Notes: generated from the letters alone by a model not told the origin. Shown: positions 14,460 through 43,982, numbered from the stretch's first letter. The stretch: DNA of 44,607 bases from Bacteroidota bacterium (GCA_039806065.1 JBDKJS010000213.1:1-44607); one strand, 5' to 3'. Translations and numbers: made by a program.

Positions 14460-14622
14460 CGCGTGAATTTTGTTTAAAAGTACGTTTTTTTAATTTATGT
14501 ACAAGGCCATTTTAGCATGAACTCCATTTCTTGAATACAATTAAGTGGCATATTTGGTGAAACTCACATACTTTTATAAATTGCCTCTGATTAATGATTG
14601 TTATATCCAAGCTATACCGCTA

Positions 14623-16548
14623 GTGTATTTTTTATCAAAGCATAAGCTACTTTATTTATCTACTGTATTTTTACTCTTAAAGTGTACCGCCCTGTGTGCA
14701 ATTGATAGTAAAGTCATTGCTATTAAAGGCTTGCCTCAACTTTCTATTAATACCGAACTGCAATATGCTATTACCGATGGCAATGATTTAAATATACCCC
14801 CTGATGATAACCAATTTAATATTGGTAATCAGTTTAATTTTTATCAAAATATCATTGAGTCGGATAAAAAATGTAATTGGTTACAACTTGAGTTAATTAA
14901 CAGTGAACCTAATAATCTAAAAGCCATTCTTAAGCTAAACATGTATGGTGAGGTTTTTATTTATAAACGTTTATCAAATAAAAGGTGGCAGCAAATTCAT
15001 AAGGGGGGAATTCTAAATATGAAATTGGTGCAACCTGATTTTACTGAAGCCATTTCGCTTGACCTTGTTTCAGGGTCAAATAAACTATTAATTGGCTTTA
15101 ATAATAATGGGTTTTTTCAACGCCCATTTAACTTAACTTTTTTTAATCAAAGTGATTTCGAATCGCAGCGATTGGCTTTCAACGACCAAAATAAAATTAA
15201 TTTTATCATTCAATTAGTATGCTTCTCTATTTTGTTTTTCCAGTTTATCTATCTCTTGTTTCAATATTTTATTATTCAAAAAGGTGAATATGTATTATAT
15301 CTGGTTTATTTACTTTTTATTTCATTGCACTTTTTAAGTGAAGCAGAATTTTCATTAGACATCCATTTGCTATTTGGATTGTGGCCTTTAAGTTATATTT
15401 ACTTAATGCATCTCTTGCCTTGGATTGCTATTGCTGTGTACCTGCAGTTTATAAAGTATTTTGGTGATCTGGAAAAAATAGATATGTCACTTTTCAGGTT
15501 CATTTCATATTGCCAAGTTTTTATGATTATCTATTTAACGGTTGATACTGTGTTTTTAATTTCAACAAAGTGGTTTATCACAATTGATTTAACATTCCGA
15601 TATATGAGTTTTGTACTCATTGCAATGGTTGCTTTTATTATTTTTAGACTTTATAAACTTCACAGTACCCTTCATAGCTTAGTTGGTGTAGGGTTACTGT
15701 GCCTTACCATAGGAGGAATGGTAAGTGTGTTATTATACAATAGTTATAATAACAATATATTTCAAACTAGGCTACATCCCATTTCATGGTTTGAGTTTGG
15801 GGCCCTTGCCGAACTTTTTTGCTTCTCCACGGCATTGGCATATAAAAACAGAATTAACTCGAAAGAAATTTTTGAAGAACGAGAGGCAAAAATTGTAGCA
15901 TTAGAAAACAGACATCAAACTCAAATAAAGTATTATGAAGTAAGAGATAGAATAGCACGCGATTTGCATGATGAAATAGGTAGTAGCCTTGGTAGTGTGA
16001 ACCTATATACTGAAGCAGCCAAGAATAAAATTAAAGCACAGCAACATGAAGAGGCATTTCAAATATTGAGTAAAATAGCTCACATATCACGCGAGGTAAT
16101 GATTAAAATGAGTGACATAGTTTGGGGTCTTAATGCAAAGAATGATACTACTGATCAGTTATTTCAAAGAATGAATAGCTACTGTGCTGAAGTGCTTCCA
16201 ATGGCAAATATTGCTTTTAATATTCAAACACAGGCTGGAGTGGAACATATTTCGCTCGATATGGTAACTCGTAAAACGCTTTACCTAATTTTTAAGGAAG
16301 CCATTTACAATGCGGTGAAACATGCTGGTTGCAAAAGTGTTTTTATTTCTTGTAGTATCCATAATCAGCAACTCCAAATTAGAATAGCTGATGATGGCCG
16401 AGGATTCGATCAGCGATTACTCTTGACTGGAAATGGACTTCGAAATATGAAGGAGCGTGCATTGGAAATGAATGGAACCCTTTCTGTTAATACCAGTGCT
16501 GGGGCTGGTACCATAATTATTATTCAAGCACCTATATTGGAATTATGA
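14623..16548 (+). CDS. 7TM-DISM-type sensor histidine kinase (HisKA_3/NarX-like core)
   Basis: Signal-like N-terminus, extracytoplasmic domain, about 7 TM helices, H-box RIARDLHDEIG, N-box KEAIYNAVKHA, DDGRGF and GNGL.NM G-boxes. Start uncertain (GTG 14545 or 14623). Confidence 0.88.
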   Translation: MYFLSKHKLLYLSTVFLLLKCTALCAIDSKVIAIKGLPQLSINTELQYAITDGNDLNIPPDDNQFNIGNQFNFYQNIIESDKKCNWLQLELINSEPNNLKAILKLNMYGEVFIYKRLSNKRWQQIHKGGILNMKLVQPDFTEAISLDLVSGSNKLLIGFNNNGFFQRPFNLTFFNQSDFESQRLAFNDQNKINFIIQLVCFSILFFQFIYLLFQYFIIQKGEYVLYLVYLLFISLHFLSEAEFSLDIHLLFGLWPLSYIYLMHLLPWIAIAVYLQFIKYFGDLEKIDMSLFRFISYCQVFMIIYLTVDTVFLISTKWFITIDLTFRYMSFVLIAMVAFIIFRLYKLHSTLHSLVGVGLLCLTIGGMVSVLLYNSYNNNIFQTRLHPISWFEFGALAELFCFSTALAYKNRINSKEIFEEREAKIVALENRHQTQIKYYEVRDRIARDLHDEIGSSLGSVNLYTEAAKNKIKAQQHEEAFQILSKIAHISREVMIKMSDIVWGLNAKNDTTDQLFQRMNSYCAEVLPMANIAFNIQTQAGVEHISLDMVTRKTLYLIFKEAIYNAVKHAGCKSVFISCSIHNQQLQIRIADDGRGFDQRLLLTGNGLRNMKERALEMNGTLSVNTSAGAGTIIIIQAPILEL

Positions 16549-18653
16549 TTAATAACCATCGCAAGTTAATGGGAATAGTGTTTAGCGTATGGTTGTATTG
16601 CCTTACGATGTGCCAGAGCAATTGTCATGCTTATGAAGCTCACATCGAACTAAAGCGATTGCTTCATCAAAATTCAAAGGCTGCTATTGATAGTTCCACT
16701 TTACAAAAACTTTCCGACTTAATTTTTGAAAGCGAACTTAGCGAATCTAATGTTACCGGTTTTGCTCTTGCTATAGAAGAACATAAACAGCAATTACTTC
16801 AAAATAATTACAACTTATTGCGTAGTATCTTATTCCGAAATATCTATTATCGACCTTCTAAAGTTTCACATCTTTATAAAATTGCATACGGAAAACGATT
16901 GATCCAAGATTTGAGTAAACAACAATCATCATTAAATAACTACTTCCTGCAAAACGCCATTCAGGGAATTAGAGTGCCCTACAGAAATGGCGGGCTAATT
17001 AATGAAGGAATAAATTTTATAGTAGCGCAATTACAGTATTTTAAAAATATTAATGATAGCGAATCTGTAAGTAACTGTTACTATGTGTTAGCAGGTTTTT
17101 ATAGAGTACAAGGTCTTATAGATAGGGCAATTTATTTTCAAAAAAAATCTCTAAGTTATCTTACCTCTGATCAACTAGTGTTTGACAATATTCCATTTAT
17201 GCGTAACCTTAGTAGCATGCGTGGTATCGAAGCTAAAATTAATAGAAAGGCCGTACTCGCATTTATGTACGTATTACAAGATAGCTATCAAGATGCAAAC
17301 CGTGAGTTGCTTGAAGCATTGCAGTTATATAAATCTACCCAATTTGATAAAAGAATTAATGATGGTACATTTGTATTTCACCAGCTCGCAAGGTTAAAAA
17401 CATTGCGCAATGAAGATAGTGCAAGCTACTACTTCAATGTTTTTGATGAATACAACATCCGTAATGAGAATTATAACTTATACCGAGCACACATTAGCCA
17501 AGAAAATGCTTTTTACTACTACAAGCATGGTCAATATCAAAAGGCTGAAAGTTGTATAGCTGAATCAAAAAAAATAATTGACTCTTTAAGTATTCCTATT
17601 CAAACGGCTCCTGGATATTTACTTCCAGGGTACTATCATGCGTTGATTAAAACAGCAACAGGTTTGCATCTACAGGCCATTACATTACTACGAACAGAAA
17701 TAGAACAATTGAAAGCCGTGAATTTAAGAACTGAGATCTTGAAGGAACAATTGCTTTTGGCCGATTGCTATTCTAAAGCTAATCTGCCATTAATGGCTTA
17801 TGCTGTTATGCAAGATCACGCTTTACTTCAACAAGATATACTGTTAGAGCAAAATCAAAATAGAAGCCTTAGTTCAGAATTGGAGCGTGAACTTAATGAA
17901 AGAGAAATAGATTACAATAAAGTTCTTGTAGAGAATAGGTATATCAAACAATCGAGAATTTATATAATTATTTTTGCGGTGCTTATTATTTTAATCATCA
18001 TCATCTTATTGAATCGATATCAACAAAAGAAAGAAATGGCAATGGCTGCCATGCGTGAAAAACTCAGAAAGGAGTTAGACCAAGACATAGGTAGTGCACT
18101 TGGAAGTATTAGCTTGTATGCCGAAATAGTAGGGAAAAAAATTAGAGCAGGCCATACACCCGATGCTGAGGCCATCAGTAATAAAATAGGTGCCGTATCG
18201 CGCGATTCTGTAGACCAAATGAATGATATTATGTGGTCACTTAATACCAATCAAGATCATGGTCAAGCATTGCTACTAAAATTTCAAACTTATGTAGCCC
18301 AAATTGACTTCCAAAAGTTTAATTTTGTGTTTGAATCAAAGCAAGAATTTTCCAATACAAATATTTCAATGATCAATAGGCGATACCTGTACATGTTCTT
18401 CAAAACCATCGTCTCCCTTGCATCTAAATATCTTACCGCTGACAATGTTATTGTTAAACTTTCCACTTCTGGGCAATGGATAATACTAGATGTGAAGTTT
18501 GGTTCTAACAGCTTTAATTTTTCTACCCTATCGGAAATTGAAAAATCGGCTCTCGAAAATTTGTTAGTAAGGCTCAAAGATTTTGGTGGTCAATTACAGC
18601 ACAGCGGACAAATGGATACAAACTTTTCTGTTTCTATTCGCCTTCAAAATTAG
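16545..18653 (+). CDS. Periplasmic TPR-like sensor with degenerate histidine-kinase core (pseudokinase)
   Basis: Signal peptide, long helical TPR-like region, one TM (IYIIIFAVLIILIIIILL), HisKA_3-like RKELDQDIGSALGSI lacking the His, no recognisable N or G boxes. ATGA overlap with the upstream kinase. Confidence 0.75.
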   Translation: MINNHRKLMGIVFSVWLYCLTMCQSNCHAYEAHIELKRLLHQNSKAAIDSSTLQKLSDLIFESELSESNVTGFALAIEEHKQQLLQNNYNLLRSILFRNIYYRPSKVSHLYKIAYGKRLIQDLSKQQSSLNNYFLQNAIQGIRVPYRNGGLINEGINFIVAQLQYFKNINDSESVSNCYYVLAGFYRVQGLIDRAIYFQKKSLSYLTSDQLVFDNIPFMRNLSSMRGIEAKINRKAVLAFMYVLQDSYQDANRELLEALQLYKSTQFDKRINDGTFVFHQLARLKTLRNEDSASYYFNVFDEYNIRNENYNLYRAHISQENAFYYYKHGQYQKAESCIAESKKIIDSLSIPIQTAPGYLLPGYYHALIKTATGLHLQAITLLRTEIEQLKAVNLRTEILKEQLLLADCYSKANLPLMAYAVMQDHALLQQDILLEQNQNRSLSSELERELNEREIDYNKVLVENRYIKQSRIYIIIFAVLIILIIIILLNRYQQKKEMAMAAMREKLRKELDQDIGSALGSISLYAEIVGKKIRAGHTPDAEAISNKIGAVSRDSVDQMNDIMWSLNTNQDHGQALLLKFQTYVAQIDFQKFNFVFESKQEFSNTNISMINRRYLYMFFKTIVSLASKYLTADNVIVKLSTSGQWIILDVKFGSNSFNFSTLSEIEKSALENLLVRLKDFGGQLQHSGQMDTNFSVSIRLQN

Positions 18654-18786
18654 GCTTTTTAAAAAATTATCACTGTTTGCTACAACTTTTTATTCAAAAT
18701 TGCGTACTATTTTTTTATTCAATTATTAATCTATAATTCATTTTTAACCAATTTTGGGTTTGATTTTTGAAAAAACTATACAATTA

Positions 18787-19206
18787 ATGAAACAGCTAAT
18801 TTCCCTAACGCTATTTTTATCCATCATTTCAATGACCGCTTGTAAAAAAGAAGAAGGTCCAGGTGGTACTGCTTCCATAAAAGGAAAAGTTTTTTTGCAA
18901 GAATACAATTCATCTTTCACTAATATAACCACAGAATATTATGCGCCCGATGTAGATGTATTCATTATTTATGGAAATGAAGACAACATTTTTGATGATC
19001 GAACACGCACAAGTTATGATGGTAGTTTTCAATTTAAAAATTTGCAAAAGGGTGATTACCGAGTGTTTGCCTATTCCAAAGATTCTTCAGGGGCAGCTGA
19101 TGGTAACCCAACCGAACTCAATCCTGACAAAGCTATAATTAAAAGCATCAACATCGCATCCAATAAATCTGAAAACAACATAGGCGATATCATAATTCTC
19201 GACTAA
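18787..19206 (+). CDS. Lipoprotein with prealbumin/carboxypeptidase-regulatory-like beta-sandwich
   Basis: Lipobox SMTA-C followed by KKEE, resembling the Bacteroidota lipoprotein export signal. ASIKGKV ... TSYDGSFQFKNLQKGDYRVFAYS pattern. Confidence 0.75.
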   Translation: MKQLISLTLFLSIISMTACKKEEGPGGTASIKGKVFLQEYNSSFTNITTEYYAPDVDVFIIYGNEDNIFDDRTRTSYDGSFQFKNLQKGDYRVFAYSKDSSGAADGNPTELNPDKAIIKSINIASNKSENNIGDIIILD

Positions 19207-19208
19207 CA

Positions 19209-19772
19209 ATGAAACAGCTCTTCATAATTATTTGCGCACTTGGCCTATGTACCTTTGCCAATGCTCAAAGTAAAAAGGATATAAAGAAATATAAGGTCAA
19301 ATTGGTGAAAATTGAAAAAACCATACTTCGCAATGGCAATACTTTAATACTTCCTGAACTTGAAGAAAAGTATGATGCCAATTCTAATCTGTTAGAACTT
19401 AAAGAATACGATAACGAAGGAAAAATTGATAAGCATGAAAGCTATCAGTATAATAAGAATAATGATATAACTTCAGAAATTCACTATAATGCTGAAGGTG
19501 CTATGAAGAAAAAAATTCTTTCAAAATATGATGCTAACGGAAACAGAACAGAGCAAGCTGAATATGATGGAACCGGTGTATTAAAGAAGAAAGAGGTTTA
19601 TACCTATAATGCAATGGGTGATAGAATTGCTGAAGTAGAAGTAGATGGCGCAGGAAAAGTAGTTTCAAAGTCTGTAATTCTTTATAACAATAAGGGCATG
19701 CGAGTAGATAAAAAAACTACCGATGTAAATGGCGTATTGCTTAACCAACGAAAATACACCTACGAATTTTAA
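19209..19772 (+). CDS. Exported YD/RHS-like repeat protein
   Basis: Signal peptide ending ANA-Q, five 26-aa repeats Y(D/N)xxG(N/D)...(D/N)xxG. Confidence 0.75.
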   Translation: MKQLFIIICALGLCTFANAQSKKDIKKYKVKLVKIEKTILRNGNTLILPELEEKYDANSNLLELKEYDNEGKIDKHESYQYNKNNDITSEIHYNAEGAMKKKILSKYDANGNRTEQAEYDGTGVLKKKEVYTYNAMGDRIAEVEVDGAGKVVSKSVILYNNKGMRVDKKTTDVNGVLLNQRKYTYEF

Positions 19773-20545
19773 TGATACCTTCAGTAATAGATAGCTTGCA
19801 ACAAATAGCGCCCATTTCACTTTCTCAAATGGATGGGGTAAAATTACTTGACAGGGTTGACACCAAGTTTATGTTCAACGAGGCGCTTTTGCCTAGTTTA
19901 ATTAAAGCAATGGGAAGTAGCTATTATGTATTGGAAATAGCTAATCAAAGATTTAGTAATTACGAAACTTTGTATTTTGATACTAAAGATTTTGATCTTT
20001 ACAGAATTCACCATAATGGTAAGCTCAACCGGTTTAAATTTCGTTGCCGGAAATATGTTGAAAGCAACCTTCATTTTTTCGAGGTAAAATTTAAAAATAA
20101 CAAAGGACGTACTATTAAGGATAGAATAAAAAGACCGGAAATTATTAGACAAATAAGCGGCAAGGCCGAGGAGTTGGTAAAAAGTGTGACCAATGTAGAT
20201 CCTGCATTATTACAACCTAAACTATGGGTTAATTATGTGCGTATAACATTTGTAAATAAAATTTCACAAGAAAGGTTGACTATCGATACGGATCTTACCT
20301 TCGTTGATGATTACAAAAAAGTAAAACTTGAAGGATTGGTCATAGCTGAAGTAAAGCAAGGTAAAGCCTCTGATACCAGCCCTTTCATTTCCCTGATGCG
20401 CCAAAATAAAGTATTGCAAAATTCTATTTCTAAATATTGCCTTGGGGTAATAAGTCTTAATCCTGCAATCAAAAAAAATCGATTTAAACCAACGCTATTA
20501 TATATTAATAAACTACTTTCTAACTATGGACGACTTGTCGCTTGA
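19772..20545 (+). CDS. VTC (polyphosphate polymerase) domain protein, TTM fold
   Basis: RVDTKF, YFDT, RFKFRCRKY, FFEVKFK, Y.RITF, ERLTIDTDL, IAEVK, SKYC, the characteristic bacterial VTC motifs. Confidence 0.88.
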   Translation: MIPSVIDSLQQIAPISLSQMDGVKLLDRVDTKFMFNEALLPSLIKAMGSSYYVLEIANQRFSNYETLYFDTKDFDLYRIHHNGKLNRFKFRCRKYVESNLHFFEVKFKNNKGRTIKDRIKRPEIIRQISGKAEELVKSVTNVDPALLQPKLWVNYVRITFVNKISQERLTIDTDLTFVDDYKKVKLEGLVIAEVKQGKASDTSPFISLMRQNKVLQNSISKYCLGVISLNPAIKKNRFKPTLLYINKLLSNYGRLVA

Positions 20546-21119
20546 AATTTGGGATAAATTAAACGCAAAGTTTTTTATCCGCCTTGCTATTGATGTTTTT
20601 ATGATGCTTCTGCTTGTTAGGCTCATCTATTTTAAAATATATAAAAAGAAGGATTATCTATTTACTTTTTTTATTTTTAATATCATCATATTTATTATTA
20701 CCTATTTACTTAATAAGGTAGATATGAGCATGGGCGCAGCCTTTGGATTGTTTGCTGTATTTAGCATGTTGCGTTATAGAACCGAAGGCATTACCACTAA
20801 GGACATGACCTACCTCTTCATCGTAATAGCTATGGGTTTGATCTGTGCGGTTAGTAAAGCTACCTATTTTGAACTTATATTGCTCAACCTAATAATCATT
20901 TGCTTTGTATATGCGCTTGATGGGAATTGGTTGGTAAAAAATGAGCTTACCAAAAATGTACAATATGAAAATATTGAAAATATTAAACCTGAAAATCATC
21001 AGTTATTGATGGATGATTTGCGCAGGCGCACTGGACTAGCCATTCACAGAGTTTCGGTAAATAAAATTGATTTCTTGAAGGATGTAGCTATCGTAAAAAT
21101 TTATTATTACGAAACTTAG
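20526..21119 (+). CDS. DUF4956 membrane protein
   Basis: GAAFGLFAVFSMLRYRT..I..KDMTYLF..IAMGL motif, multiple TMs, C-terminal DLRRRTGL. Adjacent to the VTC gene as typical. Confidence 0.88.
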   Translation: MDDLSLEIWDKLNAKFFIRLAIDVFMMLLLVRLIYFKIYKKKDYLFTFFIFNIIIFIITYLLNKVDMSMGAAFGLFAVFSMLRYRTEGITTKDMTYLFIVIAMGLICAVSKATYFELILLNLIIICFVYALDGNWLVKNELTKNVQYENIENIKPENHQLLMDDLRRRTGLAIHRVSVNKIDFLKDVAIVKIYYYET

Positions 21120-21132
21120 TTAAGAACTGCTC

Positions 21133-21816
21133 ATGTATTTAAGGTTGCGCAAATTTGCCTTCAATATTGGTTGTTTTGGCTTCCTCATAGCCCCGCTATT
21201 TGCAGCTGCACAACCTGATTTGCAGTTGCGTGCAGGATTCACAGTGAAGCACAATTTTACACAACGCATTGAAACCTCAGTCAATTATCAAAACAGGCGC
21301 GAAGCCAATTTAGCTTTATTTACAGGCCACGTATTTAATTTAAATTTTGATTATGAGCTATCCTCTAAATTTTCATTGGGAAGCTCTTACCGATTAAGTG
21401 TGTATGATGCGTCCAACTATTGGAGCAAAAGGCATCGAGGGCATATAGAAGCAAGTTACAAATTTAAAGTTAATCCATTAACCATTACTTTGCGTAGCAG
21501 ATTGCAAGCTGGGGTACAAGATGTAATGAGTAGCGAAAAGGGTAAACTGCCTACGGTTTATAATCGAAATAGAGCCAACGTAAAACTTAGCACCAGTGGC
21601 TTTTGGTCTCCATTTGCAAGGGTGGAGCAATTCCTATTAATTAAAAATGCTGATGAAAGATTTAAATTTGCTAGAATGCGATATACACTTGGATTAGAAT
21701 ATGCACCAAACAGATTGAATAGTTTTGAAATTGGAGCATTTTTGCAAAATAAGTATGGAGGCGATGGCACCAGCCAATCAGTAGTGGTTTTAATTAATTA
21801 TTCTATTACTATTTAA
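21133..21816 (+). CDS. Outer-membrane beta-barrel (DUF2490-like)
   Basis: Signal peptide, alternating amphipathic strands rich in Arg/Lys (RSRLQ, RNR, RMRYTLG), C-terminal INYSITI strand. Confidence 0.65.
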   Translation: MYLRLRKFAFNIGCFGFLIAPLFAAAQPDLQLRAGFTVKHNFTQRIETSVNYQNRREANLALFTGHVFNLNFDYELSSKFSLGSSYRLSVYDASNYWSKRHRGHIEASYKFKVNPLTITLRSRLQAGVQDVMSSEKGKLPTVYNRNRANVKLSTSGFWSPFARVEQFLLIKNADERFKFARMRYTLGLEYAPNRLNSFEIGAFLQNKYGGDGTSQSVVVLINYSITI

Positions 21817-22290
21817 TTACTGGGCTAATAATAATACTACTGCATAACAGCAAATCCCTTCTTTTCGTCCTACATAGCCCATTTTTTCGTTAGTGGTAGC
21901 TTTGATACTTACTTGATCTATTGCACATTCTAAAATCCTGGCAATGCAGGCCTGCATTTGTGGAACATGATGCATGATTTTGGGCGCTTCTAAAACTAAT
22001 GCTATGTCCATATTACCCAACTTATATCCCTTTTGTTGGATCAGCTGGTACACATGCGATAAAAGTATTTTCGAATCGATGCTCTTATATTTTTCGTCCG
22101 TATCAGGAAAATGCTTTCCTATATCACCTAGCGCAAGTGCTCCAAGCATGGCATCGCACACAGCGTGCAGCATCACATCAGCATCTGAGTGACCCTTAGC
22201 CCCCTGATCATGTGGTATATTTATACCTCCAAGCCATAGCGGTATGCCATCAACTAAGGGGTGTACGTCAAATCCAAATCCTATTCTCAT
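21817..22290 (-). CDS. ispF: 2-C-methyl-D-erythritol 2,4-cyclodiphosphate synthase
   Basis: MRIGFGFDVH, GHSDADV..HA..DA.LGA...GDIGKHFPD, KATTNEKMG. Confidence 0.96.
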   Translation of the reverse strand: MRIGFGFDVHPLVDGIPLWLGGINIPHDQGAKGHSDADVMLHAVCDAMLGALALGDIGKHFPDTDEKYKSIDSKILLSHVYQLIQQKGYKLGNMDIALVLEAPKIMHHVPQMQACIARILECAIDQVSIKATTNEKMGYVGRKEGICCYAVVLLLAQ

Positions 22291-22315
22291 AATGTGCACA
22301 TGTATGATAATTCTA

Positions 22316-22353
22316 AAACAAAAAGGGCTGACTCAAAATTGGAGACAGCCTTT
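22316..22353 (-). terminator. Probable terminator after porV
   Basis: Minus strand AAAGGCTGTCTC-CAATTTT-GAGTCAGCCC followed by TTTTTGTTTT. Confidence 0.65.
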
Positions 22354-22430
22354 CAACATTCATTCGATCACTAGCGCAGGATGTAAAAAATTAATCTGTC
22401 AGCAATAATGGACAAGTATTTTTACAACTG

Positions 22431-23672
22431 TTATTCGTTTTCTTTATTGTCTTTTTTAAGTCCGTCAAAGTCAAAGGTGAGTGTAAAACGGAGTGTGTTT
22501 TCTAATGGATTGCGCTGAGTGGTGGGAATAAGGTAAGCAAAATCCAATCCAAATACATTGTATTTTAAACCAGCCCCAAGGGTGAAAAATTGCCGATTTC
22601 CTTTCGTGGCCGATTCATGGAAGAAACCAGCTCTTACTGCAAATTGATTGTCATACCAATATTCTGTGGCTACATTCCAAATAATTTCTCGTAATTCTTC
22701 CTTAAAGCCTGCAGGCGCATCAGACCAAGAACTAAATACCGCTTCAGGTACTCCAACTGTGGTTGGGTCCTTGCCTAATAATACAACTCTATTGCCATCT
22801 ACATCTGTGCTATCGCCAGTGCCATCGGCCCGTTGGTAATAGATCGGTTGAGTTGGGACAAGTAGCTTGTTGATATCGGCACTTATGGTTATTGTATTAT
22901 ATTGATCTAATTCAAATTTTAAACTGTTACCCAATCTAAAATTTGCAGGAATAAAATCTCTAACTCCTGTTTCAGTGTAAGAAATTTTAGCACCAAGGTT
23001 GGAGATGTTCATCCCGGCTGAATAAACTGCTTTTTTACCGCCAACTTTCACTTCAGTTTTATATAGCATAGATAAATCAGCTGCCACTGATCTACCAGCC
23101 CTTGTGGCTACTGAGCCTTCAGCAAAGGCATTACCAGTGAGATTGGAATAAATATATTTTAAAGTTAGACCTCCTGAAAGTTTTTCACCTAGCTTTCTTG
23201 CATAGGCAATGTTGAATGCAAATTCGTTTGGGTTGAAAGATCCGTTGGGGTTACCAAACTGATCGGTAAATTGAATATTTCCTAGTGAGAAATAAAGCAA
23301 CGAGATACCGATCGCTTGATTGTTTTTTAATTTTCTATAGCCTGAAAGATAGGCCAGATTGATATCGTCAACCAAAGCACGCAACCAAGGTGTGTAGGAG
23401 ATTGAAAACCCTACCTCCTTGTCAGCGGTGGCTAGCTTTGATGCATTCCAGTGAATGGAAGCGGGATCGGCAGAGGTGGCTACTCCATTGTCGCCCATTC
23501 CGCCTGCACGTGCATCCGGTGCTATCAAAAGAAATGGAACGGCTGTAGTAATTGTATTAAGCTGACCCAACAATGAATCTCTATTGATACTTGTGCGTGT
23601 TTGTGCAAAGCTATCTTTAGACAATACTAAAATACTTAGCGTTATACCAAAAAGTAGGTTTAATTTTTTCAT
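22431..23672 (-). CDS. porV: T9SS outer-membrane shuttle PorV
   Basis: ITTAVPFLLIAPDARAGGMGD, YTPWL, KGNRQFFTLGAG, NPLENTLRFTL. Directly downstream of porU. Confidence 0.95.
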   Translation of the reverse strand: MKKLNLLFGITLSILVLSKDSFAQTRTSINRDSLLGQLNTITTAVPFLLIAPDARAGGMGDNGVATSADPASIHWNASKLATADKEVGFSISYTPWLRALVDDINLAYLSGYRKLKNNQAIGISLLYFSLGNIQFTDQFGNPNGSFNPNEFAFNIAYARKLGEKLSGGLTLKYIYSNLTGNAFAEGSVATRAGRSVAADLSMLYKTEVKVGGKKAVYSAGMNISNLGAKISYTETGVRDFIPANFRLGNSLKFELDQYNTITISADINKLLVPTQPIYYQRADGTGDSTDVDGNRVVLLGKDPTTVGVPEAVFSSWSDAPAGFKEELREIIWNVATEYWYDNQFAVRAGFFHESATKGNRQFFTLGAGLKYNVFGLDFAYLIPTTQRNPLENTLRFTLTFDFDGLKKDNKENE

Positions 23673-23690
23673 TGGAGTAATTAAGGTTGG

Positions 23691-23698
23691 CAAATATA
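23691..23698 (-). promoter_or_regulatory. -7 promoter element for porV
   Basis: Reverse complement TATATTTG about 18 nt upstream of ATG 23672. Confidence 0.6.
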
Positions 23699-23803
23699 CG
23701 AGAATAGACCGTAAATGATACATTTAAATAGCATCAATAATTGGGGGTCTAATCATTTTAACACCATTTTTAATGGCGTGCTTCTAACGTGTGTTTGTTT
23801 TAT

Positions 23804-26800
23804 TTATTTTAAAATAACCAGCTTTTCTATTTTATCTGCACTTTCTCCATCATCAGTGCGCACACTTAGCTTGTATACGTACACTCCTCTGCCAATTTTA
23901 TTACCATAATCGTCTAAGCCATCCCATGTCATGCTATCATCTCTAAAACCGGTGGTCTGTATATTTTCTCGTATCGTTTTTATCAATTTTCCAGAAATCG
24001 TATAAATTTGAACTTGTGCTACCAATGGCACGCAAGGTTTATTGTGTTCAAACATGAATCGGGTATTGGTAGTAAATGGATTGGGCCAATTGAGCACATG
24101 ATTCAAAGCTAGCCCTGCCGACTCGGCTACCACAAATTCTGTATATGCCTCACTTGAATTGTTATATACATCCCATACTTTCACTTTTAAACTGTGATTA
24201 CCCGGAGCTAAATCACTAAACGGAAATCTAATTTTACCACTTTGGTAGCTATTCAAGTCGGCTGTATAATAGTCGTTTAATACATAGGTTTTAGTATTGT
24301 CATTGTCAAGTTGTGCTGTGGCATCGTGACCCAATCCTGTTCCGATGGTGTTTATGCCACTACTATCATTGGCTATGGCTAATAAAATAGGGCTATTATC
24401 AGTGCTACCACCAAAGACAAACTTCTCATCATTCATAAACAAGTTTAAGTTAGGCCCTTTATTATCTGATGGCGCATTGGCATTTACGCCTCCAACAATT
24501 ACATTGGTATTATAACCATTAGCATCTATGGTGCCATCGTAAGCATAGTAACTTATTTTACCATACCCATATTGGATGGCAATATCTTTTGGTACAATGA
24601 AAGAAAAATTAAAATCGCCATTGGTTACACTTGCAACTCCTTTGTACAAGGCATTTTTTTGCAGTTTAAAATTGGTTATAAAACTTTGTCCTGGATCATT
24701 GCCCTGGGTGGCAAAAACACCAGTCTTGTCAAAAGCAGTTGGGGTAATAAATCCATTGAATCCGGTTAATTTGTTGCCTTGTTCATCGGCTATATAGCCT
24801 GTTACTGTAACCTTGCTAAGTGCTTGTAGTGTATCAGAAATGGCTGTATTGGTATTTCCATTAATACTGGTAGTGATTACTTGATGACGGGGGAAATTGA
24901 ACTTTACTGCTGGGTCGCCCAAGAGCATAAAATTTCGAGTGTTCAGCGCATTGTAGCTTGCCTTTGTTCGCTGAAATACTTCTCCAAAGGTGGGAATTCT
25001 GCTTTCTCGGATGTTGAAGAGGTGATAAGTGAAAAATTTTGAGAGTGTAAAATTTTGTGCTGAATAGGCAAGGCGAGTAGTAGTGAATAAGGCAATGCCC
25101 CCACCTTGAGGATTGATTAATAACAATTCACCCGCTGAAGTACGTGCAGGATCGTCAGGCCTGCTAAATTCGCATGTGGCAGTTAAAAAAGCTGGTAGCT
25201 TATTGATATTTGTAAAACCTGTTATGTCATTTACTTCGAGCACTCGCTCCAAGGTCCAACCCAGTTCACCTCCATGACCTATGTAAGTAAGTAGTAAGGA
25301 GCCTCTTTGAATTCTATTCACAATGGCCGATTGTGCACTTGGATAACGCTCGCCTCCTGCCAATACTTCTTGCTCATAGGCATCTAAAAATATTTTATCT
25401 ACGTTGATTGATTTGTGCTTATTTCCCACGCTGTCATCAGCCAGAATCTGTGCCTGTGATAAATGCGTGTTGCCATCTTCATCATCGGCAACATAGGTAA
25501 ACACATTGCGCCAATCACCAAATGGCGATGTACTGCTAACAGTACAGTTAGGGTCCGAGGTATTTATATTTTCTGTAGCCGAATATACTTTTATCTTATT
25601 AACCACACCATTGGCTTCATCAACTGTTTTTACCGGATGGCGGCCTATGGCTATATCCACTACTTCTGTGGCTGAAGGCAGCCACTCACCTTCATTGACA
25701 TCCAGCTGTCCGAAGAAATCATCACTCGTATAGGAATTACTTAAGTTAGTAGAATTTTGCGACTCGTATGCAATCACAAAGTTGGTATTGTTAGTGATTC
25801 TATCTTTGGGATCATAACTACAATCACCATGCAGTAGTAAATATTTTGGATATATATTTCCAGGGGTTGACCGGTCGTAAAACATTTTCATAAAATCGCG
25901 AATGGCTGTTACATCTTGTGCGCCTGAACTAAATTCATTGTAAACCTGTTCTGGTGTAACCACTGCCACGCTTAAACCATCTTTGGTGCGGTGCAACGTA
26001 GCCAATTCTTCAGCACTGGCCATAAATGCCGGATGCGAAATGATGATCATGTCCGTTTGTGCAAGGCCGTGCAAATCTTGATTATTTACTTTACCACTTA
26101 GGTAAGGGTTCAAATAATTGTTGCCTGATATGACGTATGTTCTTAAACTATCAGTACTTTGTACAAAAGTTGCCGTGTTGCCATTGAGCACATATTGCTG
26201 ACTTTTTATGTTCAAAGGGTCAGTAATTTCCCAAAGCAATGCATTAGTCACCACACTCCCTATTTCATATTGTGCTATGGTGCCCAGACCCACACTGCGG
26301 CTGTCTCTGAAAATTGTTTGCCCATTAAGTGAAGTTTGTGCTAAAGCTCGCCTTGCGTTTATTTCTATAAAATTTAACCAACCGCTAGCTGCCTGATCGG
26401 CACTGCTAAAATTGATTCCTACGTTTAAGGTACTTCCATTGATGAGTACTCCTGAACAGGATCCACCATTGTTAGCATAATCTAAGTAATAAATCGGTGG
26501 ACCGGGTACTGTATTCACATTGAAAGTGGTGACTGGCTGCCCGTTGGCACTCACTTGCCAGCTATTTATTGCGCTAATGCTTCGGCCGGCTACTGAAACA
26601 TTAATCTTTACTTGCTCGGATGTTATTAAGTTTGGAAACTCAAATGCAATATTTCTAGTGCTATTGATTACGTCAAATTGTTCGCCATACCATTCCCTAC
26701 CACTTTTGATCAAGTTCACCTGATCTACTTCATGGTATTTAAAATCGTCAAAACTGTTTACTACCACAGTGGGAGCAAGGGTGCTGCTCGCTTGCTGGGC

Positions 26801-27700
26801 TATGCGCTTGCCTACCCCTAGATCAGAGGTGATAAAAAAATAGGTGCTATCGGCATACAAATTTATTTGGTGTTCAAAATTTAAACAGGTATTTGCCGGC
26901 TTATACCGCCATTGGTTTTGTGATTCACCAAAGAATAATACATAATCGGTGCTATTAAACACACCATCTTGCGCCCCTTCTACATATATGGCATTCTCTT
27001 GCAAATCGTCATAGCGTAATACCGCATTCGCCTGTGGTAACATGCCACCACCATTGCCGTACATTCTCAAATTGCGAGGGTCTAAATTGTCTACATCCAT
27101 GCCAAGTGATTTTAGCTGCTGATAGCTAAGCTTGTGAATGCCATTTTGTAAAGTGGCTATTTTATACCAATTGCCGTTGGCCAATACACTACTTGCTGCT
27201 GCCGCTTGTTGCAAATTGCTGCCTGTGCGTTGCCTGGTGCCATCACTGCTTAAGCTTAATGTAAAACTTAGTAAACGTTCTATAATACCAGTGGTCACAT
27301 TTTTTCTAAAGGGTACTATTTGAACCTCACAATAAGCACGCTTCTGTTCCATTGCTAAATTGGTTTGAACTGAAACGGCTTCGCGTACTGCTCCATCAGG
27401 AATGATCACTCCCTTAGGCACTGGTTCATACAATGCATTGGTGATACTGGCTACTACATTTTTATCGCCAAAGTCGTCAAACCTTTTTTGCCAAACCGGA
27501 AGCATCCACTCATTGTAACCAGCCCCTTCAAAATTTAAAAATGTGAGCTTGTCATCACTACCTTGAATTTTTTCTGCTTGCAATGGCTTCCAATCTAATT
27601 TGATGTACGATTCCACCAGTTGCGCTTGTAATGCTGTGCTCATCCCTAGCATCGCCAAAATGATCGTTAAAAAAAACGGACTTCCAAAATTAAATTTCAT
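23804..27700 (-). CDS. porU: T9SS sortase PorU (peptidase C25 family)
   Basis: SVLANGNWYK, YGNGG.ML, YNEFSSG..D.TAIRDF, catalytic YIGHGG and TATCEF, WDVYNNS, own CTD (NWPNPFT). Confidence 0.95.
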   Translation of the reverse strand: MKFNFGSPFFLTIILAMLGMSTALQAQLVESYIKLDWKPLQAEKIQGSDDKLTFLNFEGAGYNEWMLPVWQKRFDDFGDKNVVASITNALYEPVPKGVIIPDGAVREAVSVQTNLAMEQKRAYCEVQIVPFRKNVTTGIIERLLSFTLSLSSDGTRQRTGSNLQQAAAASSVLANGNWYKIATLQNGIHKLSYQQLKSLGMDVDNLDPRNLRMYGNGGGMLPQANAVLRYDDLQENAIYVEGAQDGVFNSTDYVLFFGESQNQWRYKPANTCLNFEHQINLYADSTYFFITSDLGVGKRIAQQASSTLAPTVVVNSFDDFKYHEVDQVNLIKSGREWYGEQFDVINSTRNIAFEFPNLITSEQVKINVSVAGRSISAINSWQVSANGQPVTTFNVNTVPGPPIYYLDYANNGGSCSGVLINGSTLNVGINFSSADQAASGWLNFIEINARRALAQTSLNGQTIFRDSRSVGLGTIAQYEIGSVVTNALLWEITDPLNIKSQQYVLNGNTATFVQSTDSLRTYVISGNNYLNPYLSGKVNNQDLHGLAQTDMIIISHPAFMASAEELATLHRTKDGLSVAVVTPEQVYNEFSSGAQDVTAIRDFMKMFYDRSTPGNIYPKYLLLHGDCSYDPKDRITNNTNFVIAYESQNSTNLSNSYTSDDFFGQLDVNEGEWLPSATEVVDIAIGRHPVKTVDEANGVVNKIKVYSATENINTSDPNCTVSSTSPFGDWRNVFTYVADDEDGNTHLSQAQILADDSVGNKHKSINVDKIFLDAYEQEVLAGGERYPSAQSAIVNRIQRGSLLLTYIGHGGELGWTLERVLEVNDITGFTNINKLPAFLTATCEFSRPDDPARTSAGELLLINPQGGGIALFTTTRLAYSAQNFTLSKFFTYHLFNIRESRIPTFGEVFQRTKASYNALNTRNFMLLGDPAVKFNFPRHQVITTSINGNTNTAISDTLQALSKVTVTGYIADEQGNKLTGFNGFITPTAFDKTGVFATQGNDPGQSFITNFKLQKNALYKGVASVTNGDFNFSFIVPKDIAIQYGYGKISYYAYDGTIDANGYNTNVIVGGVNANAPSDNKGPNLNLFMNDEKFVFGGSTDNSPILLAIANDSSGINTIGTGLGHDATAQLDNDNTKTYVLNDYYTADLNSYQSGKIRFPFSDLAPGNHSLKVKVWDVYNNSSEAYTEFVVAESAGLALNHVLNWPNPFTTNTRFMFEHNKPCVPLVAQVQIYTISGKLIKTIRENIQTTGFRDDSMTWDGLDDYGNKIGRGVYVYKLSVRTDDGESADKIEKLVILK

Positions 27701-30706: not shown

Positions 30707-32179
30707 TTACAATTTCTGAAGCTTTCCTCTAAACTCCTTCCCGCTCCTTGTTTTAACTCTGTAAAGATAAACTCCACTGGGTTCACCACTCAAATTAATA
30801 TTTGGCTTGGTGCTGGTAACGGTAACCTCTCCAAACAAATTATAAACCGCTACACTGCTCACCGTTTCGTTTTGAATAAGAAAATTGAACCATGATGCCG
30901 AAGGGTTGGGGAAAACGGTAACGCTATTTGCTTCATTGCTTTGGTTAATGACTGCTACATTGTTTAAACCTAAACTATCGCATGCGCTGCCATCTATGGG
31001 CCCCAACTCATAGTTGGTGTGGTTGGGCATGCTAAAGGCATTGTACCAAGGCAATACCAAACCCTGCTGCACCACATTGCAGGCCATGCCTGCACTATCA
31101 GGGCTGTTGATGACATGCAGCACATTGGTGCCATTAAACGTGCTTACATAAATTTTATTATCAGGCGCTAACTGCATCATGAAAAAAGTTGTATTAAATC
31201 CCTGAACATTGCTGCCATCCCATTGGGCAACGGTATCACATGTGGAGGATACATTGGTAGCATAGGTATCATACTGCAAAATATTTAAATTGCTGCAACG
31301 GTATAAATACCTGCCATTGGGTGAAAAAGCTACACCAACATTGGCTAATGGTGTATCTGGAGCCAATATGCGTTCTTTAAAAATTAAATCGCCACTGCAA
31401 CGGTCAAAATCAAACAAATCATAGTAGGGGTATTGTTGCATCAGTACACATTGATCACCTTGTTTTGTAAAGACCAATTGCGAACCAATGGCATCTTGTG
31501 TAAACAAGGGTCCTTCAACCTGACTTGAAACACTGATGCCATAAGGTGTGAGCAGTGCTTTATAAAAAAGCGAATTGTAAAAACCATGTATCATCACCCA
31601 CCAATCTCTGCCATTGGCATGTTTCACTGCTGTGAGGCCACCATGGCTCAAGGTATCAGAAATAATCACTTCGTTTTTAATTGATGTAATCCCTCCTTTA
31701 CCGCTGTCTAAATTCATATCAATAACAGTGTGCATTAAATTTAGTGGTTGTAATTGATTCACATTATACATGGTAAAAAACTCCCCAGAAATATGAAATA
31801 TGTCATATAAATTACTACTAACTGGGTTTGGTAAAATTGATGCAGCTTGTTCCGTTTCTTGTCCATAAGGATAATTCCATGTTTGTAGGCCCCCCGGATT
31901 AAAATTATTACTATTCATCATGGGTTGGTGAAAACGATTGTATAACAGTTGACCATTGGTATAGAACAATAAATTGCCTGCTGTGTCGCAGATGCTGGCA
32001 TTGGTGAGGAAGAAACCGAGCGTAGATCTTAAAGTACTGGTATCAGGATTGCCGTTGTTAAAATCGAGCAATACCTGATAGTCGGGAAATGTACCTGCTA
32101 TTGGCCATTGCCTATCTCTTTTTTGAGCATTGTTTAATAATGAAATTAAACAAAAGATAACAATAAAAACTACTTTCAT
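30707..32179 (-). CDS. T9SS type A CTD protein, probable beta-propeller
   Basis: Signal peptide, ASICDTAGNLLFYTNG, KHANGRDWW, FDFDRCSG, FSPNGRYLY, QLAPDNKIY blades, CTD VFPNPS...YNLFGE...GVYLY. Confidence 0.85.
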   Translation of the reverse strand: MKVVFIVIFCLISLLNNAQKRDRQWPIAGTFPDYQVLLDFNNGNPDTSTLRSTLGFFLTNASICDTAGNLLFYTNGQLLYNRFHQPMMNSNNFNPGGLQTWNYPYGQETEQAASILPNPVSSNLYDIFHISGEFFTMYNVNQLQPLNLMHTVIDMNLDSGKGGITSIKNEVIISDTLSHGGLTAVKHANGRDWWVMIHGFYNSLFYKALLTPYGISVSSQVEGPLFTQDAIGSQLVFTKQGDQCVLMQQYPYYDLFDFDRCSGDLIFKERILAPDTPLANVGVAFSPNGRYLYRCSNLNILQYDTYATNVSSTCDTVAQWDGSNVQGFNTTFFMMQLAPDNKIYVSTFNGTNVLHVINSPDSAGMACNVVQQGLVLPWYNAFSMPNHTNYELGPIDGSACDSLGLNNVAVINQSNEANSVTVFPNPSASWFNFLIQNETVSSVAVYNLFGEVTVTSTKPNINLSGEPSGVYLYRVKTRSGKEFRGKLQKL

Positions 32180-32184
32180 AAGAA

Positions 32185-32217
32185 TAAAAAATGCACCCGC
32201 ATATAATATGCAGGTGC
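32185..32217 (-). terminator. Terminator-like hairpin between the two T9SS cargo genes
   Basis: Minus strand GCACCTGCATAT-T-ATATGCGGGTGC followed by ATTTTTT. Confidence 0.7.
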
Positions 32218-32226
32218 TATTAAAAA

Positions 32227-35200
32227 TTAGTGGATGATACTTATTTTTCCAATTGCCTTCACTACATCATTTGATTTAACAATATATAAATAGAGGCCAT
32301 TGCTCAAAGATTCTACATTAATCTTATTGTCAACAACTTTTTCTTGCACAACTATATTACCTAATTGATTTTTTATTTCAATCTGCAAAACTTCGCTGTT
32401 AAGATTTTGGATATTTAAAACTGTAGAGGCAGGATTAGGAAAAACTTTCAAACCTCCATCAAAATAGCTTGTAGAGTCGATTTTCCTTTTCCGCATAGCT
32501 ACATTGGCGCAAAACAACTGATCATCAAATATCAATTCCTGATTCTGCGAATAAACAATAGCACGCGCTTCGTAAACAGAAGGCCCTCCAATATAGGGAC
32601 ACATATTGGCAATGGCAAGATTTTCATCATACTCTTGTTGTGTGAGAATAGTTCTTTCTTCGCCCCACAAATTGAGCTTTGTTTCAGTAACTTTTTTCTC
32701 ATTGATTGCATAGATTTCTATAGGATTAACCTCAGCCAATTTCTCCTTAGCCTCATTGATACGCATCAAGCGAATTTCAGGGGTTATTGCACCACTGCTT
32801 TCATCGGTGATAAATGAAACTGCCACTTGAGTTTCGGCTAATTTCTCTTTATCACTATTCATCTGATCCTGATAAAAGTCATTCAAGATGGCACTGGTGA
32901 GCAATGTAGGATCTTCTTTTATTTTCTTCAATAACTCTTTCTCTTGCAACCACTGATAAAGTGCTTCGTCATTGGGTTGTGTGCTTAGCTGCTCACTAAA
33001 TTGCTCTAAGCCTTCCAGACTGGCCTCATCCCATGGGATATCATTTTCACATTCACGTGGGCAAGCAAATGGAACATATGCTGGCTGATTATTGGGCAGA
33101 AAAGCAGTTGCCAAACCAATAGCATTGTTTGTAAGCGGATTGTAGATTCCGTTATTGACCCAGAAAGCATTATTTGCTGCATAAGAATTTATACTCAAGA
33201 TAGCGGCTCCATAAAATGTTCCGTTGTTATCATAGCCGAGGTATTTGTTGCCGGGGGTGTTGTTTTGGTTGTTGAGCTGCTGCGGGCCCAGGGTGCCGCC
33301 ATAGAGGTTGCTGCCCACTTGCTCGCCCAGCACCAAACCATAGAAAGAGCCGCGAAACTGGTTGCCCAATATTTTGCTGCCAAGGCTGTTGCCTGTGAAC
33401 TGAATACCCTGCCGCGCATTCCAGTTGTTGTTGCACTGAAGGGTCATGTCAGTAGAATAGGCATTGGTGATGTTGGTAAAATTACCCAAAGACCAGGCTC
33501 CCTGGGTGATGTAATTTTGATTGCAACTTACTGTCATTTTTACATTGTTCTGCAATAGTATGCCTGCATATTTATGGGTGCTTTGGTGGTTAATATTTCG
33601 GGCATTTAAAATATTGTTTTGGTCAATGTTGCCATAGCCATTGTTAGATACATGTATGCCTGCATAGCCCCCGGTGGTGATGGCATTGGCGGTTATGCTA
33701 AGGTGATTGCCGGCATTGGCATGGTCCAGGTTTAAGATGCCAAACTCTTTCTGGTAGTTAGGGTTAACAGTAGTAATGCTGTTGTTCTTAATATTAATAC
33801 CCGAGTTAACGGAAGCATTCAGCGAAATACCGGAACCTACAAAATCCATCTGGTTATCAGTGATACTAATTGTTTTACCAATATTAAATGCTCCAGCTAT
33901 GGCATTGTCGCATAGGGAAAAAGAGGTGGAGGTTACATTAAAATCTCTGTTGTACTCTAAAATGCCACGGCTGCAATCGGTAAAGCTCACGGCATGTTTA
34001 GGCAAGGCACTGCCTATGTTTAGAAAATAGCTGCGCGATGGATTTCTGTCGCAATACACACCACCTGCATGTGAGGCCGGTGTAGCACCGCGATTGATGT
34101 TAGAGAAATCAGTACCGTAGAGACCAAGGTCGCTTTCTTTAATATCTATTCCAATAACAGCATCAGAGATGGTGTTGTGCGCTTCAAAAGTACCGTTCGA
34201 TAACTGGCGGGGTCTGATGAAAACATTGCGGCAGTTGTTAAAAGAAATTTGTTGGTCGCTTTGGGTCACCTGCCATGCATGGGGGGTGGCAGGGCAACTG
34301 AAAGTGTTATTACCACCAATAACGTATGCAAAAGCAGGTTGACGAGATACCAAAATATCATCCAAATTAAATATTTGAATTGATTTTTTATTGTTGTAAA
34401 ACATGCTGCCATAAATACCGAGTCTGCCCCCATCGGTGAGCACTAAACCATTGGTAGCATCTTGCAAGGTGATGTGGTATAAAATGGCATCGTTGCCTCG
34501 GCCTTTAAAATAGATACCATCCCACAGGCCATCGCAGCCCCTAAAAATATTGTTATTTTCAGAGGGAGTACGCAAGCCTGTACCATCGGTAAAAACCATT
34601 TTAGTGCCGGGAGACATGATAAAAGTATTCTCATCAAAATTAATTGAATTACCGGTGTAAGGTACATCAAAAATAATATCGCTGGTACAGTAATAGGTAG
34701 TGTTTGCAGCGAGAAAAGTACCAAGGTTTTGTGCATTGATGATATTGTTATTTCTATTGACCATGGTATAGCCTTGTCCCAAACAGCCACACGTATTGGT
34801 AGATTGAGGGGTAACATTGGCAACGGTGGTGCAACCTCTGTTATCTGTTATTAAAAAAGAGTATGGAGTAGCGTCCTCAAGATTCTTTACATTATTGCTA
34901 TTGAGCAGTATGTTACCGGGATTCATCACTACATTGTAAGTAGTATAATTGATCCCCGATGCAGCCATGGGTGTGCCTCCCGTGATGTGCAATGCTATTT
35001 CGGCATCATTGCCTTCCTGGCAACTGCTTTGTGTAACAGTAGTTTGGGCTGTGAGCGGGGCAATGGGGTGAAGCACTATATTGGTAATGGTGGAGCAATT
35101 AGCTGAAACAGCCAAAATAGGATATGTACCAGCATTAACTCCATTTAATCTGTAACCAAAGTTTGTAGAATTTAAAGTTGTTCCGTTATACCAATAAGTT

Positions 35201-43873: not shown

Positions 43874-43982
43874 TAAAAGCCATACTTTTTATTCGTTACT
43901 TTATGTTTCAATAAAATGTTTAAGGTAAAATTACCACACCTTAACTTTTAATCTCACAAGTGAAATTATGTTTCTAGGTAAA

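Follow-up and report, generated by a model that had tools for sequence, protein, structure and literature searches.

In bacteria, polyphosphate synthesis is generally attributed to Ppk1 and Ppk2, and the polymer is assumed to stay in the cytoplasm. In eukaryotes, polymerisation and translocation are combined in the VTC complex (Vtc4/Vtc3 or Vtc2/Vtc1; structures 3g3q, 7ytj and 8i6v), and an excerpt of the structural report on the yeast complex describes a positively charged path that leads from the tunnel exit into the membrane channel (PMC9911596). Here we analyse a 44,607-nucleotide stretch of DNA from a Bacteroidota bacterium (GCA_039806065.1, JBDKJS010000213.1:1-44607; hereafter the window), in which five + strand open reading frames (ORFs) spanning 18787–21816 combine a VTC-domain enzyme with an inner-membrane DUF4956 protein and three envelope proteins. 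We propose that this operon may be a split bacterial analogue of the eukaryotic polymerase-translocase, an export model whose chances we judge to be about evenly balanced.

How does this locus compare with its closest described relatives? The VTC protein of the window shares the catalytic fold and the tunnel residues of eukaryotic VTC, its cytoplasmic polymerase candidate is likewise encoded together with a membrane protein, and the charged path of the yeast complex can be set beside conserved arginines at the predicted cytoplasmic face of DUF4956. Unlike eukaryotic VTC, the window protein carries neither the SPX sensor nor the Vtc1-type three-helix channel domain (Pfam shows VTC only along its 257 amino acids, with no SPX and no membrane domain), its membrane partner is a separate and unrelated five-helix protein, and its target would be a bacterial envelope with outer-membrane parts rather than the vacuole.

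The second relative occurs in Gram-positive bacteria, where the available text of Whitfield et al. (10.1101/768473) places cotH, polyphosphate-polymerase-domain and DUF4956 genes beside pel loci. As far as the excerpts of such reports go, these cassettes have a VTC-DUF4956 core and a secreted CotH protein, a combination that recurs in 13 of 80 close relatives of the window; their hosts have one membrane, and they add DUF4832 or a diguanylate cyclase. The window operon instead adds a lipoprotein, a YD-repeat protein and a barrel, and has neither pel genes nor CotH next to it. Its five genes are the following:

18787–19206, + strand: lipoprotein, 139 amino acids (ORF; an alternative TTG start lies at 18754)
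19209–19772, + strand: exported Lys-rich YD/RHS-repeat protein, 187 amino acids (ORF and RHS_repeat match)
19772–20545, + strand: predicted cytoplasmic VTC-domain triphosphate-tunnel enzyme, 257 amino acids (PF09359; without signal peptide)
20526–21119, + strand: DUF4956 inner-membrane protein, 197 amino acids (PF16316)
21133–21816, + strand: predicted DUF2490 outer-membrane beta-barrel, 227 amino acids (PF10677; signal peptide present)

In gene order, the junctions are a 2-nucleotide gap, a 1-nucleotide TAATG overlap, a 20-nucleotide overlap and a 13-nucleotide gap. A first-pass annotation of the sequence, which had proposed an envelope-spanning machine for polyphosphate synthesis and export, had described the same five coupled genes, and its gaps and overlaps all proved exact. 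None of the five proteins matched an NCBIfam family.

A Vtc4-type enzyme and its DUF4956 partner

The VTC protein matches PF09359 along nearly the whole model (positions 2–234 of 235; E = 6.1e-29, 101.7 bits against a cut-off of 23), and an alignment of 54 VTC proteins holds 16 invariant residues, mostly Arg and Lys. Because a PDB search with the single sequence returned only spurious matches to designed propeller proteins, a profile search was needed. The profile of the 54 sequences matched the catalytic domain of yeast Vtc4 (3g3q) over its entire length (E = 1.1e-16) and, more weakly, the non-catalytic Vtc2 and Vtc3 (1.1e-10 and 9.8e-07). Mapping the residues by hand along the printed profile alignment, we found that R91, R93 and E193 of the window protein align with R264, R266 and E426 of yeast Vtc4, and K32, K106, R157, R168 and S220/K221 with K200, K281, R361, R373 and S457/K458. 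We take the latter group of Vtc4 residues to bind substrate, as was reportedly described by Hothorn and colleagues in 2009. All nine Vtc4-aligned tunnel residues are invariant or at least 90% conserved among the 54 sequences. In the available part of the yeast work, the R264A/R266A/E426N VTC is a catalytically impaired complex that was used for cryo-electron microscopy (PMC9911596). Together, these alignments support the prediction that the window encodes a tunnel enzyme of the Vtc4 type that has retained its catalytic residues, and make the protein a candidate Vtc4-like polyphosphate polymerase.

Conserved tunnel residues are not proof of polymerase chemistry, because the triphosphate-tunnel (TTM) superfamily includes triphosphatases, or hydrolases, and cyclases. 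The enzyme could instead hydrolyse or cyclise a triphosphate and control DUF4956 as an MgtC-like effector of phosphate or cation homeostasis; a streptococcal DUF4956 homologue is described, in the accessible portion of one report, as an MgtC-like membrane domain joined to an ACT domain (PMC12345266). We consider this explanation improbable. The protein matches the VTC model, and no Pfam CYTH model was matched at E up to 0.1; the closest solved structure is that of Vtc4, the active polymerase, Vtc2 and Vtc3 being matched more weakly; and the DUF4956 proteins have no Pfam MgtC match at E ≤ 0.01 or 0.1, so that we set the MgtC relationship aside.

To what extent are the enzyme and the membrane protein linked? 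We surveyed 301 sampled Bacteroidota genomes for family matches and found VTC in 47, DUF4956 in 90 and DUF2490 in 103 of them, often in multiple copies. When the pairing was counted by hand from the two tables of match positions, DUF4956 lay directly downstream and on the same strand for 48 of the 51 VTC matches; two more had DUF4956 within 3 kb in a different order, and the last was a 54-position fragment. The first-pass annotation had proposed a gene-neighbourhood survey as a check, and the VTC-DUF4956 pairing came through it well. DUF4956 itself occurs without VTC in 43 of the 301 genomes; thus VTC appears to depend on DUF4956, and not the reverse. In four DUF4956 proteins taken from VTC-free genomes, DUF4956 was the sole Pfam match. 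Searches for fused or longer VTC forms, made with the single protein and then with the 54-sequence alignment, returned nothing at E ≤ 1e-5, which is weak evidence. A 778-amino-acid "fused VTC" in one locus (L157) was an artefact: it is a long spurious frame in a GC-rich genome, and a membrane-fusion gene, read in a different frame, covers part of its upstream portion.

The DUF4956 protein matches PF16316 with E = 2.7e-53 (180.6 bits against a cut-off of 30.6) and no other Pfam family. Its AlphaFold2 model (predicted local distance difference test, pLDDT, 83.2) begins with a short helix, continues with five long transmembrane helices and ends in a beta-alpha-beta-beta domain. In an alignment of 56 sequences, L75 and R85 are invariant and A72, G74, R83, T86, Y96 and F98 are near-invariant (R83 and T86 at 90% or more). 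The resulting motif is AFGLFAVFSxLRYRTE; its near-invariant LRYRT portion maps to helix 3, at the end predicted to face the cytoplasm. The loops that follow helices 1 and 3 are basic (KIYKKKD and RYRTEGITTKD) and, by the positive-inside rule, the N-terminus would then lie outside, and the C-terminal domain, like the RYRT motif, would be cytoplasmic. The conserved R83 and R85 would then sit at the cytoplasmic face, where VTC would dock. A complex prediction for VTC and DUF4956 gave a score of 0.00 against a mark of 0.32, with controls absent, and is not evidence either way.

Envelope partners in close relatives and in a second clade

A search with the DUF4956 protein gave 80 close loci, from mostly uncultured Bacteroidota and at 50–83% identity, of which the 60 with room on both sides were used for gene-order counts. 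The full five-gene set is present in unchanged order in 44 of the 60. A detectable DUF2490 is missing in seven and the YD gene in three, four hold the VTC-DUF4956 pair alone as a second copy in the genome, and two show other partial patterns. Along the cassette, median gaps were 9, 2.5, −4 and 9.5 nucleotides (46 five-gene loci). The downstream neighbours ispF and PorV are retained in 46/68 and 44/68 close loci, respectively, about a third having lost them, and the upstream histidine kinases show no conservation alongside the cassette (HK1 in 1/80 loci, HK2 in 0/80). Thus, the five genes move as a unit, and their arrangement exceeds chance. The ispF/PorV synteny recurs in two loci of another family (L121 and L123); since the sister clade does not have it, it appears to be inherited gene order and not a functional link.

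The lipoprotein and the YD protein are restricted mainly to the window's lineage. The lipoprotein has a signal peptide, Cys19, a Gly-rich tether (CKKxxGxGG) and a small beta-sandwich of the CarboxypepD_reg/prealbumin type; its Pfam matches, to prealbumin-like and CarboxypepD_reg-like beta-sandwiches, are all sub-threshold, and the ESM Atlas returned only hypothetical proteins of Bacteroidota. Cys19, K21, G24, G26 and G27 are found in 59 of 59 relatives, and the family also keeps a G-x-F...L..G.Y beta-sandwich signature. In Bacteroidota, a short acidic motif after the lipobox cysteine is the lipoprotein export signal. The surface-export-like CKKEE that had been pointed out in the window is indeed there (MTAC-KKEE), but its acidic part is not conserved: after the lipobox Cys, position +3 is a near-universal Lys, +4 is Asp or Glu in 23/52 and Pro in 16/52, and +5 is Ala in 30/52 and Glu in 16/52, so that CKKEE is just one of many variants. 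Because these acidic residues vary, surface exposure of the lipoprotein is uncertain.

The YD protein carries a type-I signal peptide ending in ...ANA/Q and an RHS_repeat match (PF05593, 24.3 bits against a cut-off of 22), and the ESM Atlas groups it with clusters of small YD/RHS-repeat proteins. It is basic (14.4% Lys, isoelectric point 8.9) and conserves an N-terminal stretch of lysines (K22, K23, K26, K27 and K31) together with about one Lys or Arg per repeat. This composition, and that of the DUF2490 barrel (7.9% Arg, isoelectric point 10.06), bear out the Lys-rich repeat protein and the Arg-rich barrel of the first-pass annotation.

Beyond the close relatives, the loci fall into two clades. 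Loci of the window's type match DUF4956 strongly; in the second type, VTC is matched strongly and DUF4956 weakly and in part. With local models derived from the 80 close loci, we scanned 21 first-type loci of the wider set and 19 second-type loci. In the first, we found VTC in 18/21, an adjacent DUF2490 in 14/21 (three of them upstream), the lipoprotein in 5/21 and the YD protein in 2/21; in the second, DUF2490, the lipoprotein and the YD protein were each found in 0/19. The inner-membrane pair stays the same, and it is the outer parts that change from lineage to lineage. Conservation of the three envelope genes with the pair, on which the original proposal had leaned, stands in the window's lineage (44/60) and fails beyond it (0/19 in the second clade); the objection that the proposal itself had named, loss of these genes beside the pair, has therefore partly materialised.

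In the second clade, another protein takes a place beside the pair. A protein of about 357 amino acids adjoins it in 18/19 loci, immediately upstream of VTC in 15 and in L157 and immediately downstream of DUF4956 in two. A profile of this family matches membrane-fusion proteins (MacA, E = 2.7e-11; EmrA, 2.4e-10; and also AcrA), and Pfam HlyD_3 matches 7 of 17 members. The presence of an efflux-type adaptor beside the pair in a sister clade independently points to a trans-envelope function, and suggests that the pair forms the inner-membrane component of an exporter, a likeness to tripartite efflux systems of the MacA, EmrA or AcrA type. Unlike in those systems, no ABC, RND or MFS pump accompanies the pair; in the window, a scan with the local model for membrane-fusion proteins found none.

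OprP and OprO are porins with a basic lining that select for phosphate and pyrophosphate, respectively, and KdgM is a 12-strand porin for acidic sugars. Genes of the Porin_O_P family, to which OprP and OprO belong, flank the pair in L049 (4778–5968, 31.5 bits) and L150 (7525–8529, 22 bits; cut-off 20.9). These two loci are unrelated, and one of the pairs stands bare, as a second copy, in a genome where the five-gene cassette is present as well; when the two porin neighbours were used in a jackhmmer search against the ORFs of 120 loci and of the window, no more copies turned up. The strongest argument from context for the exit of something anionic from the cytoplasm is that one and the same pair is joined, depending on the clade, by a barrel, an efflux adaptor or a phosphate-type porin.

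Is the barrel of the window suited to an anion? It matches PF10677 (E = 1.8e-16, 60.8 bits against a cut-off of 29.8), and its AlphaFold2 model (pLDDT 92.2) shows an N-terminal signal helix followed by 11 DSSP strands. The best genuine Foldseek superpositions are 12-strand barrels, led by the EspP beta-domain (TM 0.52) and followed by LpxR, BrkA and intimin, and the DUF2490 profile weakly matches intimin (3.8e-4) and, marginally, KdgM (E = 0.0076). By its predicted structure, then, the protein is an outer-membrane barrel of about 12 strands. With OprP and OprO it shares the concept of a barrel with basic residues; it differs from them in being a DUF2490 protein, outside Porin_O_P and much smaller.

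DUF2490 is a large, multi-copy family that, in the 301-genome survey, lies mostly away from VTC. The genome of the window has a second, canonical DUF2490 gene away from the operon (G000:C145:14306-14890, E = 1.7e-45), which retains glutamates that the operon copy has lost. The available portion of a 2026 preprint (10.64898/2026.07.29.741452) describes a conserved network of cations, anions and tyrosines buried inside the DUF2490 barrel. We compared 44 VTC-linked DUF2490 proteins with 14 free ones, the latter being a small, non-random set picked by hand from the DUF2490 matches listed in the survey. R55, R102, R121, R123, R145, E165 and R183 are common to both groups. Four other alignment positions differ: VTC-linked proteins have R87 in 42/44, R100 in 35/44, Q125 in 37/44 and K151 in 33/44, where the free proteins have G or A at 87, E at 100 (14/14), E at 125 (14/14) and N or another residue at 151. 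The window barrel carries R100 and Q125 and, of the glutamates at 100, 125 and 165, keeps E165 alone, a departure from the charge balance of the free family. Two of the three conserved anions are thus gone from the VTC-linked subfamily, which has acquired up to three cations. Such a change fits a barrel interior that binds or passes an anion, and the interior of these barrels appears to have become net cationic.

These comparisons bear on a simpler explanation, in which polyphosphate would be made in the cytoplasm by a membrane-tethered enzyme and not exported at all. DUF4956 would then be an anchor or regulator, and the exported proteins would be co-regulated without ever touching the polymer. 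The lack of detectable channel homology in DUF4956 is consistent with this, as are the resemblance of its C-terminal beta-alpha-beta-beta domain to small ligand-binding regulatory domains, the ACT-like domain proposed for the streptococcal homologue (in the accessible text of PMC12345266) and the differences between clades in the envelope genes beside the pair. However, the recruitment of different envelope parts by different clades (DUF2490; a membrane-fusion protein in 18/19 loci; Porin_O_P twice) is hard to explain without export, and the charge shift of the VTC-linked barrels argues for contact with an anion. We regard synthesis without export as unlikely.

CotH proteins and the surroundings of the operon

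CotH enzymes are ATP-dependent kinases. A local CotH model built from three sequences found CotH in 13/80 close loci, directly upstream of the cassette and in the same orientation, and near the pair in 2/21 wider loci of the first type and 5/19 of the second; a blastp cluster suggests CotH in 8/19 loci of the second clade. In one locus (L046), the CotH ORF ends about 100 nucleotides before the lipoprotein gene. Pfam confirmed six such neighbours as CotH-family proteins, three of them from close loci. Four of the six carry LTD and CHB_HEX_C, and three carry Por_Secre_tail above its cut-off, which marks them as cargo of the type IX secretion system (T9SS). The 2.8-Mb genome of the window holds five CotH matches, none of them adjacent to the operon, the nearest starting at 43968, about 22 kb away. 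At 41477–44606, a TonB-dependent receptor (CarboxypepD_reg, Plug and barrel) is followed by a CotH gene that runs off the end of the window.

Similar associations have been published. In the parts of these reports that are available, Clostridium perfringens NELoc-2 carries VTC-domain and CotH genes (PMC2879425), deletion of the DUF4956-like and CotH genes of Streptococcus intermedius SIR_1592-1594 lowers Pel-dependent aggregation (PMC12345266), and Bacteroides thetaiotaomicron BT3498-99 are adjacent DUF4956 and DUF2490 genes (PMC10434189). Used as a control in our family searches, the B. thetaiotaomicron genome gave matches to VTC, DUF4956, DUF2490 and CotH.

Could the operon therefore be an accessory module of CotH? 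It would then deliver a phosphate donor that CotH-type kinases consume immediately, on an exopolysaccharide or a surface protein, and no free polyphosphate would accumulate. This would account for the CotH genes upstream of the cassette in 13/80 close loci, for those found in the vicinity of the pair in other clades, for the five CotH matches in the window's genome and for the S. intermedius phenotype, as far as the excerpt describes it. Against it, the window has no CotH adjacent to its operon, 67/80 close loci have none in the fetched flanks according to the three-sequence model, and CotH enzymes use ATP. We find this explanation doubtful.

Upstream of the operon, two overlapping + strand genes of sensor-kinase-like appearance occupy 14545–18653: one encodes a 7TMR-DISM/HisKA_3/HATPase kinase and the other a 702-amino-acid TPR-like protein with one membrane helix, in which Pfam shows no recognisable kinase domain; no response regulator is adjacent to either. 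Downstream and convergent (21817–27700, − strand) are ispF, PorV and a 1298-amino-acid PorU-like C25 peptidase, and the stop codon of DUF2490 abuts that of ispF with zero spacer. Further on (30707–37929, − strand), two T9SS cargo genes with Por_Secre_tail encode proteins of 490 and 1900 amino acids, the longer of which also has a sub-threshold SprB-repeat match.

Rfam matched no RNA family within the window. A sigma-70 promoter scan was at chance level (18 found against 19.5 expected). The sequence TANNTTTG, which we take to be the Bacteroidota −7 promoter motif, has no + strand match in the 133-nucleotide spacer preceding the operon and is at chance level over the whole window (57 found against 63 expected). 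With both motif counts at chance, we make no promoter claim for the operon. A search for RNA evidence listed no RNA dataset; a single sequencing run of unspecified type, stored as contigs, matched 0.31 of the sampled words.

A model for envelope export

What would the complete machine do? In the export model, the cytoplasmic VTC enzyme would polymerise the gamma-phosphate of ATP into polyphosphate, as Vtc4 does, acting at the cytoplasmic face of the five-helix DUF4956 protein, which is probably an oligomer and would move the chain across the inner membrane. In the window's lineage, the basic YD-repeat protein and the tethered lipoprotein would handle the polymer in the periplasm, and the polymer would reach or cross the outer membrane at the putatively net-cationic DUF2490 barrel. 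CotH kinases secreted by the type IX system would be the likely users at the surface. In this model we infer that the enzyme is a polymerase, that the proteins touch and that the chain is translocated, as well as what the product is and where it ends up. The envelope-spanning machine of the first-pass annotation draws support from the Vtc4-type enzyme, the obligate pairing with DUF4956 and the envelope neighbours, and is weakened by the restriction of the three envelope genes to one lineage.

Several observations weigh against the export model. (i) Besides the hydrolases and cyclases of the TTM superfamily, a Ppk1 gene lies elsewhere in the window's genome, so polyphosphate need not derive from VTC. 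As a correction to the first-pass annotation, VTC would thus be a second route to polyphosphate in this organism and not the sole one. (ii) DUF4956 without VTC is found in the 43 genomes noted above, and one locus (L135, G135:C1:2178000-2190600) combines DUF4956 with an adjacent DUF2490 and a neighbouring CotH in a genome with no VTC match anywhere, from a family in which VTC was found in 0/8. The membrane and outer-membrane pair of that locus may use another polymer source, and the membrane module is therefore not strictly dependent on the VTC enzyme. (iii) The pair stands alone in the 4/60 close loci described above, and the lipoprotein and YD protein thin out in the wider loci of the first type. 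(iv) With its roughly 12 strands and packed charge network, the barrel may lack an open pore, and its charge shift is measured against the small free set. (v) DUF4956 resembles no solved structure, either by fold at E ≤ 0.001 (0 matches) or by sequence, and no kinship with the Vtc1-type channel, or with any transporter of known structure, could be detected. (vi) A search limited to the accessible literature found no experiment on a bacterial VTC or DUF4956 protein and no paper describing the Bacteroidota cassette.

The export model could be taken one step further. The pair might export polyphosphate as a surface energy and phosphoryl currency that would stand in for ATP, driving secreted CotH kinases and perhaps further reactions beyond the inner membrane, with interchangeable outer parts taken up by different lineages (the cationic DUF2490 barrel with the lipoprotein and YD protein, an efflux adaptor or Porin_O_P) and with DUF4956 as a new class of polyanion translocase; this extension is speculative, and we think it rather unlikely to hold in full.

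The cassette is conserved and uncharacterised, and to its description the present analysis adds the split into two clades, the asymmetry of the pairing and the charge shift of the barrel. If the export model is true, a Vtc4-type polymerase working with envelope proteins would be a third bacterial route to polyphosphate, and the first to place polyphosphate outside the inner membrane. As the relatives are mostly uncultured Bacteroidota genomes, such a route would bear on phosphorus cycling, and it would also matter for biofilms, for the chemistry of the cell surface and for the question of where CotH and other secreted kinases obtain a phosphoryl donor.

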